Positions 13,139-15,778 of a stretch of DNA of 25,956 nt are shown in pieces. This DNA is from Escherichia coli (GTDB lineage: Bacteria; Pseudomonadota; Gammaproteobacteria; Enterobacterales; Enterobacteriaceae). Numbering within the stretch: position 1 is the stretch's first letter; every line of letters begins with the position of its first letter. The translations under genes and the position numbers were made by a program. Where the stretch lies: the NCBI RefSeq assembly GCF_003334785.1, contig NZ_QOWV01000029.1; one strand, 5' to 3'. Below the pieces are notes generated by a model that worked only from the letters and a program-made list of their open reading frames with translations, did no database searches and was not told where the DNA came from.

Positions 13139-13531
13139 TCAGAATAATTTTTGCATTTTAAGGCGCACATCATTCATTGCCTCCTGCACCGAATCAGTAG
13201 CAGAAGGAGGCATTTTTTCAGCAGATTGCAAAGCACCGAGTTCAGTCAACACAGCTCTGATATCGGCCTGAGAAGGCTTCCATCCAGTCGTCTGACTGAG
13301 TAAGGTTACAACCTGATCTGCTGAAAACTCCTCGCTCAAAATGGCAGTCAGCAATACAGGCAGGCGAGGATCAAGTTGGTGTAACGCCATTCCAGAAATA
13401 AATGCATTCCGGAACAGCTCACCACGCTCAGAACGCGGAACGGACTCTATCGCTTCCAAAGTTTGAAAGTCTGCAGCTTTTTCCGGATGCAGATAAAGTG
13501 TGAATTTTTTCCTTTTCCGTTCATCGTCCAC
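13139..13531 (-). CDS. parR: ParR-type centromere-binding adaptor of type II partition system (130 aa)
   Basis: Immediately downstream of parM; start taken as GTG 13531 with GGAG 8 nt upstream overlapping the parM stop (track ATG 13567 would overlap parM by 32 nt). Confidence 0.65.
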   Translation of the reverse strand: MDDERKRKKFTLYLHPEKAADFQTLEAIESVPRSERGELFRNAFISGMALHQLDPRLPVLLTAILSEEFSADQVVTLLSQTTGWKPSQADIRAVLTELGALQSAEKMPPSATDSVQEAMNDVRLKMQKLF

Positions 13532-13535
13532 AATA

Positions 13536-14507
13536 TTACTCCTCTTTGAAAGCCGCGATAGCTTCAACCAGTGCTGTCTGTGGCGACTCCATCATCACTA
13601 CTTTTTGCCCAAGATGGTGCCATGCCGTTTTTATCGAATCATAGATCAACGGGGCCCCACCACCGACAACATAAACACGATTCACATGATGAAAATCACC
13701 GAGCTCATTGACTACTTGCTCCCCCAGACTGGCAATAGCCCCCTCAATGGTATTAAGGACCAGATCAGTTTTTGTTTCGTCATTTATAACCTGCCGAACA
13801 AAGTCTGGGTCATTACGACGTTTAATCAATTCATCTGCAACGAGGAAACTGGTATCACTGGATGCCATGCGCAATGCACTCATTGCAGCTTTCGTAACTG
13901 AAGACACACCAATGCCAGAATTACCATGAATGGCACTTACAGAGTCAAATTGACCAACGATAACACCAACATCAAGCGTAGTGCCGCCAATATCAACTAC
14001 CAGCGATTTTTCGAACTGACCAACTTTATCCATAACCAGACGAGAAAACACAGCTGGCAATGATTCAGGCATCACATCAACGTGTTCAATGGTGAAAACA
14101 TCGCCCTTATTAAGACGAATCGGCCTCATTAAATTCTCAATTTTACGCTGAATGTTGAGTTCATTTTTTTGACACTCTTTCGTGTAGAACTCACTGATAG
14201 GCAAAGTCACAGTCAATGATACAGGCTGAGGCGCTAATCCACTATTCAGTAAAGCGTGATGCACAGCTAACAGGTTAACATCCGTATATTGATACTCAAT
14301 ATGAGTCGTAAGAATAGATTGGTTGCTAACTTCATCATACGTGTATTTTTTACCATCCAGTTCATAGTTAAATGTCTGGCGAATCCCTAACCCGTCAACC
14401 TTCCATCCATGACGAAATGAGTTTTGCGACAACGACTTACAGATTTTCCCATTGTCATTCCATGCCAACTTGATTGTTGTTGAACCATCATCGCAGTATA
14501 CGTTCAT
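13536..14507 (-). CDS. parM: ParM/StbA actin-like segregation ATPase (323 aa)
   Basis: N-terminal DDGSTTIKLAW and overall similarity to ParM of R1 from memory. Confidence 0.85.
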   Translation of the reverse strand: MNVYCDDGSTTIKLAWNDNGKICKSLSQNSFRHGWKVDGLGIRQTFNYELDGKKYTYDEVSNQSILTTHIEYQYTDVNLLAVHHALLNSGLAPQPVSLTVTLPISEFYTKECQKNELNIQRKIENLMRPIRLNKGDVFTIEHVDVMPESLPAVFSRLVMDKVGQFEKSLVVDIGGTTLDVGVIVGQFDSVSAIHGNSGIGVSSVTKAAMSALRMASSDTSFLVADELIKRRNDPDFVRQVINDETKTDLVLNTIEGAIASLGEQVVNELGDFHHVNRVYVVGGGAPLIYDSIKTAWHHLGQKVVMMESPQTALVEAIAAFKEE

Positions 14508-14735
14508 CTATAGCCCCTTAAATACTCAATCTGAGTAAATCACTGTTTCTGGTTGCAAGGTAATACTCAATTTGAGCACTATCATAGTTATGAAATCACA
14601 AAACACAAGTAATATTTATTACATCATATGACACACTTCATATTTCAAACTTCATAAATATGAACACATATTGACACCTCAGGTTACCGTGTCAAAATAT
14701 CATCATACTTCACACATCACATTTATGAGGTTGCA
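14508..14735. repeat. Intergenic repeat region between divergent par operons; candidate shared centromere and divergent promoters
   Basis: Direct repeats AATACTCAAT(C/T)TGAG (about 14520 and 14563), CATAT(T)GACAC (twice), CTTCATA (twice); AT-rich. Confidence 0.5.
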
Positions 14736-15380
14736 ATGATTACTGTAGTTGGTGGGAACAAAGGTGGTTCAGGGAAAACTACCATTGCATCAAACCTGGC
14801 TATTGCTCTCGCAAATAAAGGAAGGGAAGTCTGCCTGTTAAACGGAGATCTACAACGAACAGCCGCAAAACATCATGCGGAACGAGAAGCTGCAGGACTG
14901 TTACCAGCAATAACCCTTGTTGAGAAATTTGATAACCTGACACAAACACTACAGGCTCTGAATGAAAAGTTCGATGATGTAATAGTGGATGTCGCAGGAA
15001 GAAACTCAAAGGAATTCATAACGAGTGGAGTTGTCGCACATCAAATAATTGCGCCACTACAGTGTTCTCAACCAGATCTGGATACTCTTACAGAACTAGA
15101 ACAACAGATAGACGCAATGCGTAACCTTAACCCGGAACTTAAGGTTTATTGTTTACAAAGTATGGCAACAACCAACCCGGTTTTGAGGGGAAATGAGAGA
15201 AAAGAATTCCTTGAATATCTTGAAGAATTCCCAACAATTCAAGTCCTGGATTCAGTTATTTGTTTCAGAAAAGTCTATCGCGATTGCATGAGCAACGGCA
15301 CCGGTGTAGTTGAAACGAACAATACAGCAGCCAGAGCAGAAATTGAACATTTAATGAATGAGGTATTTGGCCCATGGTGA
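14736..15380 (+). CDS. parA: ParA-type Walker ATPase of type Ib partition system (214 aa)
   Basis: Deviant Walker A GGNKGGSGKTT at the N-terminus; size matches small ParA/ParF proteins. Confidence 0.85.
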   Translation: MITVVGGNKGGSGKTTIASNLAIALANKGREVCLLNGDLQRTAAKHHAEREAAGLLPAITLVEKFDNLTQTLQALNEKFDDVIVDVAGRNSKEFITSGVVAHQIIAPLQCSQPDLDTLTELEQQIDAMRNLNPELKVYCLQSMATTNPVLRGNERKEFLEYLEEFPTIQVLDSVICFRKVYRDCMSNGTGVVETNNTAARAEIEHLMNEVFGPW

Positions 15381-15649
15381 AGAAACCCAGCCAGCAAGCA
15401 TTAAACAGAGCTGCAGTTACGGTAGAACAAGCAGAGGCTCTGGCTCAGCGCCTTGCGGATAAACCATACGGCGCGCCGGAAAAACCCGAACCAGAAAAAC
15501 AATGTCGGACGACAATCTCTCTTGGTGAAAGCATGCTTGTCACAATAGAAGATCTGGCATTGAGGAATAAACGCAATGGTAAAGATCCAAAAAATGTAAG
15601 TGCCATCGTCAGAGTAGCCCTTGAGCAATACTTAAAAACACTAACGTAA
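15374..15649 (+). CDS. parB: ParB-type (ParG-like ribbon-helix-helix) centromere-binding protein (91 aa)
   Basis: Overlaps parA stop; flexible N-terminus and C-terminal RHH-like segment. Confidence 0.7.
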   Translation: MVKKPSQQALNRAAVTVEQAEALAQRLADKPYGAPEKPEPEKQCRTTISLGESMLVTIEDLALRNKRNGKDPKNVSAIVRVALEQYLKTLT

Positions 15650-15716
15650 TAATCAAGAAGTTATTACTTATGAAATCACACTTGTGAATTCATACTATTT
15701 AAGCCCCCTTGCATAC

Positions 15717-15750
15717 AAGAGATCACATATTGCAGTGGTCTCTTTTTTAT
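15717..15750 (+). terminator. Probable terminator of the parAB operon
   Basis: Imperfect 9-bp stem AAGAGATCA / TGGTCTCTT followed by TTTTTT. Confidence 0.4.
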
Positions 15751-15778
15751 AGAATAAATCACAATTCATAATTATGAT

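Follow-up and report, generated by a model that had tools for sequence, protein, structure and literature searches.

A pB171-type double partition locus, almost certainly intact, on an Escherichia coli plasmid with an apparent IncI1-type relaxase region

The par locus of plasmid pB171 is a textbook system that has served for two decades as a model of ParA-driven plasmid positioning. It is a double locus composed of par1 (parMR) and par2 (parAB) with the sites parC1 and parC2. In the pB171 literature ParB arrays are described both upstream and downstream of parAB, ParB is classed as a ribbon-helix-helix (RHH) protein, ParA positions over the nucleoid, parC1 and parC2 are used together in functional par2 constructs, and par2 alone stabilises mini-R1. 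Here we describe positions 13139–15778 of a 25,956-nucleotide stretch of Escherichia coli DNA (assembly GCF_003334785.1, contig NZ_QOWV01000029.1; the whole stretch is called the window below). The interval almost certainly holds the pB171-type double partition locus in intact form, on an E. coli plasmid that appears also to have a relaxase region of IncI1 type. The system is a known one; its plasmid context is new, though unremarkable. A sequence-only reading of the same stretch had recognized a pB171 double par locus from the divergent layout and from the sizes of ParA (214 amino acids), ParB (91) and ParR (130). The list of open reading frames agrees with both layout and sizes, and the identification itself is borne out by the ParR match (126 of 130 residues) to the pB171 protein structure and by 98.75% DNA identity to a pB171-type plasmid. 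The case made below draws on what the genes encode, on how closely the proteins match those of pB171, on the anatomy of the repeats, and on their statistical excess and evolutionary conservation. The locus is laid out as follows.

13139–13531, minus strand: parR (stbB), 130 amino acids, GTG start at 13531; type II centromere-binding adaptor
13536–14507, minus strand: parM (stbA), 323 amino acids; type II actin-like segregation ATPase
14508–14735, strand not set: parC1, 228 bp, 32% GC; shared divergent control and centromere region
14736–15380, plus strand: parA, 214 amino acids; type Ib Walker-type partition ATPase
15374–15649, plus strand: parB, 91 amino acids; centromere-binding protein, probable RHH
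15650–15778, strand not set: parC2, 129 bp, 29% GC; downstream centromere region, hexamer boxes at 15669–15694, 15722 and 15758–15778

The parMR genes on the minus strand and the parAB genes on the plus strand are transcribed divergently, and the 228-bp gap between the two start codons is parC1. The GTG of parR lies 4 nt past the parM stop codon, and the start of parB overlaps the stop of parA by 7 nt (ATGGTGA), suggesting translational coupling of the second pair. The longest open reading frame for parR encodes 142 residues from a TTG at 13567; since its alignment to PDB entry 2JD3 begins at residue 13, the start was set at the GTG at 13531, which gives a coding sequence identical to the 393-nt one annotated in RefSeq. 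All four reading frames are intact, with between zero and four residue differences from the pB171-type copy, and the exact sequence of each of the four proteins occurs on at least 1000 contigs.

ParR is identical at 126 of 130 positions (97%, E 3.8e-78) to 2JD3, which was deposited as ‘StbB protein’ and is named in a structural paper as pB171 ParR, an RHH protein with a C-terminal helical dimerization domain. Among PDB sequences this was the sole match found for ParR, R1 ParR being absent from the matches. ParM residues 2–295 match the structures of R1 ParM (1MWK, 5AEY and 4A62; E 2.8e-76), as expected of the actin-fold ATPase of a type II system, and the protein is annotated as ParM in plasmid records. 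In NCBIfam no model matched ParR, and ParM gave a weak match to PRTRC_D alone. The minus-strand half thus has the composition of a type II system, with an adaptor encoded 3′ of parM that is 97% identical to an RHH ParR of solved structure.

The DNA comparison used two stand-ins for the pB171 record (AB024946 / NC_002142), namely a plasmid encoding a ParR identical to 2JD3 and the enteropathogenic E. coli (EPEC) adherence factor (EAF) plasmid pMAR2. Apart from a GTG start that is read as V, 63 plasmids encode the 2JD3 sequence exactly; one of them, the 68-kb IncFIB plasmid p786605_2 (L006), was taken as the pB171-type reference. To this plasmid the locus is 98.75% identical (32 mismatches and one gap over 2641 bp), with four residue differences in ParR, two in ParM, one in ParA and none in ParB, and with 4 of the 228 positions of parC1 substituted. 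Identity to pMAR2 (L005) is 98.9% across the stretch from parC1 to parC2. The match to 2JD3 together with the protein comparison to p786605_2 identifies the four products as orthologues of pB171 ParM, ParR, ParA and ParB. Of 72,556 plasmid records, 995 carry 80% or more of the locus, and they come from Escherichia, Salmonella, Klebsiella and Shigella; these copies are mostly 95–100% identical and therefore say little on constraint. Two plasmids carry the locus at 100% identity, NZ_AP022179.1 and NZ_CP069544.1, which respectively cover 96% (at 100.0%) and 90% (at 99.9%) of the first 25 kb of the window.

In the plus-strand half, most RefSeq records give ParA the product name ‘division plane positioning ATPase MipZ’ and leave ParB as a ‘hypothetical protein’. 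Residues 9–15 of ParA form the deviant Walker A motif KGGSGKT of a small type Ib ATPase. Its best NCBIfam family is ParA_partition (NF041546; E 1e-33), aligned over positions 6–203 of a 203-position profile, and residues 8–210 align with ParF of TP228 (4DZZ; E 3e-7), itself a type Ib ATPase. Pfam CbiA, AAA_31 and MipZ all match the N terminus; the 262-position MipZ model does so in separate partial matches to residues 2–52 (E 5.7e-07) and 64–126 (E 0.00095), and MipZ sequences of the PDB align with residues 2–52 only. A MipZ identity was consequently rejected, the match to that family falling short of full length where ParA_partition and ParF span the whole protein, and the RefSeq name is a nearest-label artefact.

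ParB is probably a ribbon-helix-helix centromere-binding protein. Pfam RHH_1 gives a weak match (E 0.0038) of residues 45–88 to model positions 1–38 of 39. An AlphaFold2 (AF2) monomer model built from a three-sequence alignment predicts helices at 52–67 and 75–90 (predicted local distance difference test, pLDDT, 84–89) and an extended segment at 45–50, with no called strand, a prediction which is compatible with an RHH fold but does not prove it. Searches of PDB sequences with the single sequence and with a three-sequence profile returned chance-level matches only (CopG at E 0.6, adenylate cyclase at E 0.04–0.17), no NCBIfam family matched ParB, and Foldseek found no significant match to the monomer model. 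The Foldseek result is as expected for an obligate-dimer RHH protein modelled as a monomer from three sequences.

The intergenic DNA carries two different classes of repeat. Its elements, and those 3′ of parB, are listed here.

14521–14535, strand not set: predicted ParR site 1, AATACTCAAT followed by CTGAG; palindrome TACTCA-N3-TGAGTA; parM-proximal
14562–14576, strand not set: predicted ParR site 2, AATACTCAAT followed by TTGAG
14581–14671, strand not set: parC1 hexamer block 1, 13 units in a single 7-bp register; includes the 13-mer at 14588–14600
14671–14698, plus strand: promoter-like site for parAB (P2), TTGACA, 16 nt, CAAAAT, with an upstream TG; 10/12 consensus matches
14702–14729, strand not set: parC1 hexamer block 2, ATCATA, TTCACA, ATCACA and inverted CTCATA; just 5′ of the parA start
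15717–15744, plus strand: terminator-like hairpin and T-run, a 10-pair stem then TTTTATAGAA; 3′ of parB, inside parC2

The larger class is a hexamer family, WTCAYA or its complement TRTGAW, which was found by k-mer counting. It occurs 10 times in parC1 and eight times in parC2, against a window-wide background of 0.29 per 100 bp; the 914 bp that encode ParA and ParB contain one. When each region was shuffled with its composition kept, the mean counts were 1.0 and 0.6, and 0/5000 shuffles came up to the observed number in either region. The enrichment is 15–20 fold, and the two densest 200-bp hexamer stretches of the window are exactly the parC1 and parC2 regions. Several short direct repeats had already been noted in the sequence-only reading, together with a 13-mer at about 14588 and about 15668 that was held to be consistent with two centromere sites. 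The 13-mer, TTATGAAATCACA, is indeed exact at 14588–14600 and at 15668–15680, with an inverted copy at 15683–15695 that differs by two mismatches, and it proves to consist of two adjacent boxes of the hexamer family, the first inverted and the second forward. The hexamer arrays on both sides of parAB likewise agree with the two centromere sites proposed and with their description in the literature. The idea that the repeats are shared held in part: the 13-mer is common to parC1 and parC2 of the parAB half but not to the parMR and parAB systems, which have in common the intergenic region itself with its two repeat classes.

The boxes lie on a 7-bp grid, 6 bp plus a 1-bp spacer, in either orientation. 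Block 1 contains seven perfect boxes, five forward (14581, 14595, 14623, 14637 and 14651) and two inverted (TATGAA; 14589 and 14659), and six imperfect units, two forward ones with one mismatch and four with two mismatches. Block 2, with four units, ends immediately before the ribosome-binding site of parA. By our count parC1 thus holds 13 + 4 = 17 grid units, which is also the number of six-bp boxes in pB171 parC1; parC2 of pB171 has about 18 units (about 126 bp, which would fill the 129-bp gap). P2 sits between the two blocks, an arrangement that would fit autorepression by ParB, and a 7-bp-period hexamer array flanking its promoter, with a putative operator role, is as found in type Ib systems. 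In parC2 the boxes cluster at 15661–15694, which holds the second 13-mer, and at 15751–15778, with a lone box at 15722 within the hairpin; the eight perfect boxes 3′ of parB, with downstream arrays that are conserved, are what a second centromere would present at sequence level.

The second class, unrelated to the hexamer, is the exact 10-bp direct repeat AATACTCAAT, two copies of which (14521 and 14562) adjoin parM. The copies are 41 bp apart, agree at 14/15 positions when extended to 15 nt, and are each a near-palindrome. As judged from their sequence and placement, they match the published pair of 10-bp ParR sites and supply the repeated putative ParR sites that a type II system carries 5′ of its parM. 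For parMR, no promoter turned up on the minus strand in an automatic scan. A candidate picked by eye on that strand, TTGCAA-18-TCAGAT at about 14556–14527, which overlaps ParR site 1, fails the rule of an A at position 2 and is not claimed.

More diverged relatives lie on a plasmid of Enterobacter cloacae (L002), where DNA identity is about 75%, and on Providencia rettgeri pNR1418-2 (L003; 68%). Both keep the order umuDC-parR-parM diverging from parA-parB, and the divergent layout with a common intergenic region is found also in pMAR2 and p786605_2. ACTCA-N-TGAGT sites stand beside parM in two copies in the Enterobacter plasmid and in three in the Providencia plasmid. The WTCAYA grid upstream of parA is kept in both, as is the array 3′ of parB, and the three-box block just before the parA start is conserved in Enterobacter, Providencia and pMAR2. 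In pNR1418-2 the DNA 3′ of parB (L003 3985–4041) consists of eight perfect tandem TGTGAAT units, far more regular than parC2 of E. coli. ParB is 84% identical in Enterobacter and 74% in Providencia, with corresponding values for ParR of 58% and 52%; on this comparison ParB is conserved in step with an unchanged box and ParR has drifted. The sequence-only reading had named a lack of repeat conservation, or proteins unrelated to ParM, ParR, ParA and ParB, as what would count against it; the proteins are related, and the repeats are kept at 68–75% identity.

Several observations weigh against an intact pB171-type locus as we describe it. The DNA identities refer to stand-ins and not to the pB171 record itself, ParA scores 116.6 bits for ParA_partition where the cutoff is 180 bits, and our own tests of the RHH fold of ParB returned little (Pfam E 0.0038, CopG E 0.6, nothing from Foldseek). 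Furthermore, parC2 is here one 7-bp unit (TTATGAA) shorter than in pMAR2 and the pB171-type copy, and the distal 66 bp of parC2 are found also beside integrase genes on plasmids without parAB. One alternative is a locus in which one half alone works in partition, the other being a decaying passenger or a retooled pair of transcriptional regulators. The RefSeq names of the parAB products would fit such a non-partition role, as would the Pfam MipZ match on the N terminus of ParA and its score below the ParA_partition cutoff. We nevertheless consider this very unlikely: the MipZ matches are partial where those to ParA_partition and ParF extend over the whole length, the four reading frames are undamaged and within four residues of the pB171-type copy, with each protein found unchanged on 1000 contigs or more, both repeat classes persist in the 68–75%-identity relatives, which speaks for both cis sites being under purifying selection, and par2 is on record as stabilising mini-R1 by itself. 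An origin of the 13-mer and the short repeats by chance, in intergenic DNA that is AT-rich and with no role in protein binding, has a negligible probability in our estimate. Both regions are indeed AT-rich (32% and 29% GC), and when two mismatches are allowed 2/100 whole-window shuffles also gave four matches to the 13-mer. However, the 10 and eight hexamers counted were out of reach of every composition-matched shuffle, the boxes of each parC1 block hold one 7-bp register, and motif, period and placement recur in the diverged loci, including the perfect eight-unit array.

The distal part of parC2 is where a different reading has most to offer, namely that 15713–15778 is a shared terminator and/or recombinase-related site of the ResD-like integrase module next to it and that parC2 comprises only 15661–15712. 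This segment of 66 nt, which contains the terminator-like hairpin and four ParB-type boxes, is present in 1543 plasmids, some 500 more than the approximately 1000 that carry the whole par locus. In an IncF colicin B/M plasmid (L004 3001–3067) it adjoins a ResD-like integrase gene with no parAB present, and is better conserved there (98.5% identity) than the whole 807-nt alignment running through the integrase gene (83%). It follows that 15650–15778 need not all be centromere. Against this, the four boxes of the segment are perfect (15722, 15758, 15765 and 15773), the distal three share one 7-bp grid, and the indel between variants falls on that grid: the missing unit is at the integrase-proximal end (window 15772–15785 compared with L005 4266–4286 of pMAR2 and with p786605_2) and measures exactly one repeat period. 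The orphan copies could moreover be remnants left when par genes were replaced. We regard an integrase-module origin of the segment as improbable, if the least so of these alternatives. That the distal 66 bp, which persist next to ResD-like integrase genes on roughly 500 plasmids without parAB, are a separately mobile or separately selected unit is a related proposal to which we give a small chance; if it were true and the orphan boxes still bound ParB, plasmids bearing them could pair with a co-resident plasmid of the pB171 par2 type, ride along with it or be rendered incompatible with it.

By analogy with the systems that its proteins resemble, the double locus would comprise two independent plasmid-segregation machines arranged back to back. 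The account that follows, from binding and filament pushing to positioning by a ParA gradient and the repression of promoters, is inferred from the pB171, R1 and TP228 literature. In par1, ParR dimers would assemble on the two 10-bp repeats beside parM in parC1, and the resulting complex would capture the ends of ATP-bound, actin-like ParM filaments; growth of the filaments by insertion at the ParR/parC1 end would then drive sister plasmids apart, while the same complex would cover and repress the parMR promoter. In par2, RHH dimers of ParB would bind cooperatively to the 6-bp boxes that recur with a 7-bp period in parC1 and parC2. ParA-ATP would coat the nucleoid, ParB/parC would stimulate its ATP hydrolysis and release, and plasmids tracking the receding ParA would become evenly spaced over the nucleoid; ParB, seated on either side of the parAB promoter, would autoregulate the operon. 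For pB171, each half is reported to stabilise a plasmid by itself, and repression of the parMR promoter by ParB is reported as well.

Next to the par locus lie, on one side, umuD/umuC-like (polymerase V) genes at 11426–13134 on the plus strand and, on the other, a tyrosine-recombinase (ResD-like integrase) gene at 15779–16714 on the minus strand. The umuDC-par pairing is kept in both the Enterobacter and the Providencia plasmid, the integrase in Enterobacter but not in Providencia. Further off, large open reading frames at 3512–6809 (minus), 17612–18985 (plus) and 23672–25210 (minus) appear, from their position in NZ_AP022179.1, to be nikA/nikB, an IS110-family transposase and an IS66-family transposase respectively, which points to a mosaic plasmid backbone. 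Rfam returned two gathering-level matches, both near the start of the window: a sok antitoxin RNA at 1316–1473 (minus; 134 bits), which implies that a hok/sok killer locus is present, and an antisense RNA of the AgrB family at 603–690 (plus; 57 bits). No Rfam family was matched within the par locus.

The locus being known and widespread, its discovery value is small. Its identification does correct the ‘MipZ’ and ‘hypothetical protein’ labels of RefSeq for this window, and the repeat map, compared with the diverged Enterobacter and Providencia loci, cleanly defines both the ParB box, WTCAYA repeated on a 7-bp grid, and the ParR site, whose core is ACTCA-N3-TGAGT; the two definitions could serve for the automatic annotation of parC1 and parC2.

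Among described systems, pESBL (IncI1) also has a parAB locus, but this is a different locus, with a ParB of 100 amino acids and arrays of an octamer, GATAACAA, that is unrelated in sequence to the box found here. The TP228 parFGH and pSM19035 delta/omega systems resemble the parAB half in their small Walker ATPase lacking an N-terminal DNA-binding domain, in a small centromere protein of RHH type whose N-terminal tail is flexible, and in arrays of short boxes (4–7 bp) that double as operator. Sequence similarity to them is nevertheless distant (ParF, E 3e-7) and the box sequence is another one, and here two arrays flank the operon, one of them in a region shared with a type II system. The parMRC (stbAB) locus of R1/R100 has in common with the parMR half an actin-like ParM, a small ParR encoded 3′ of parM, and a centromere with promoter on the 5′ side of that gene; R1 parC, however, is made up of ten iterons of 11 bp, arranged as two groups of five, where only two 10-bp repeats are seen here, and R1 has no adjoining parAB. 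It is the pB171 double par locus that agrees throughout, with the same four genes, sizes, orientation and common intergenic region, two 10-bp ParR repeats adjoining parM and hexamer arrays on both sides of parAB. The differences from the pB171-type copy in p786605_2 are those given above, four residues in ParR, two in ParM, one in ParA, four substitutions in parC1 and a parC2 shorter by one 7-bp unit, and the setting differs from that of pB171 in its backbone, which has an apparent nikAB relaxase region of IncI1 type and places the locus between umuDC and an integrase. Nothing in the locus departs from the published pB171 model.

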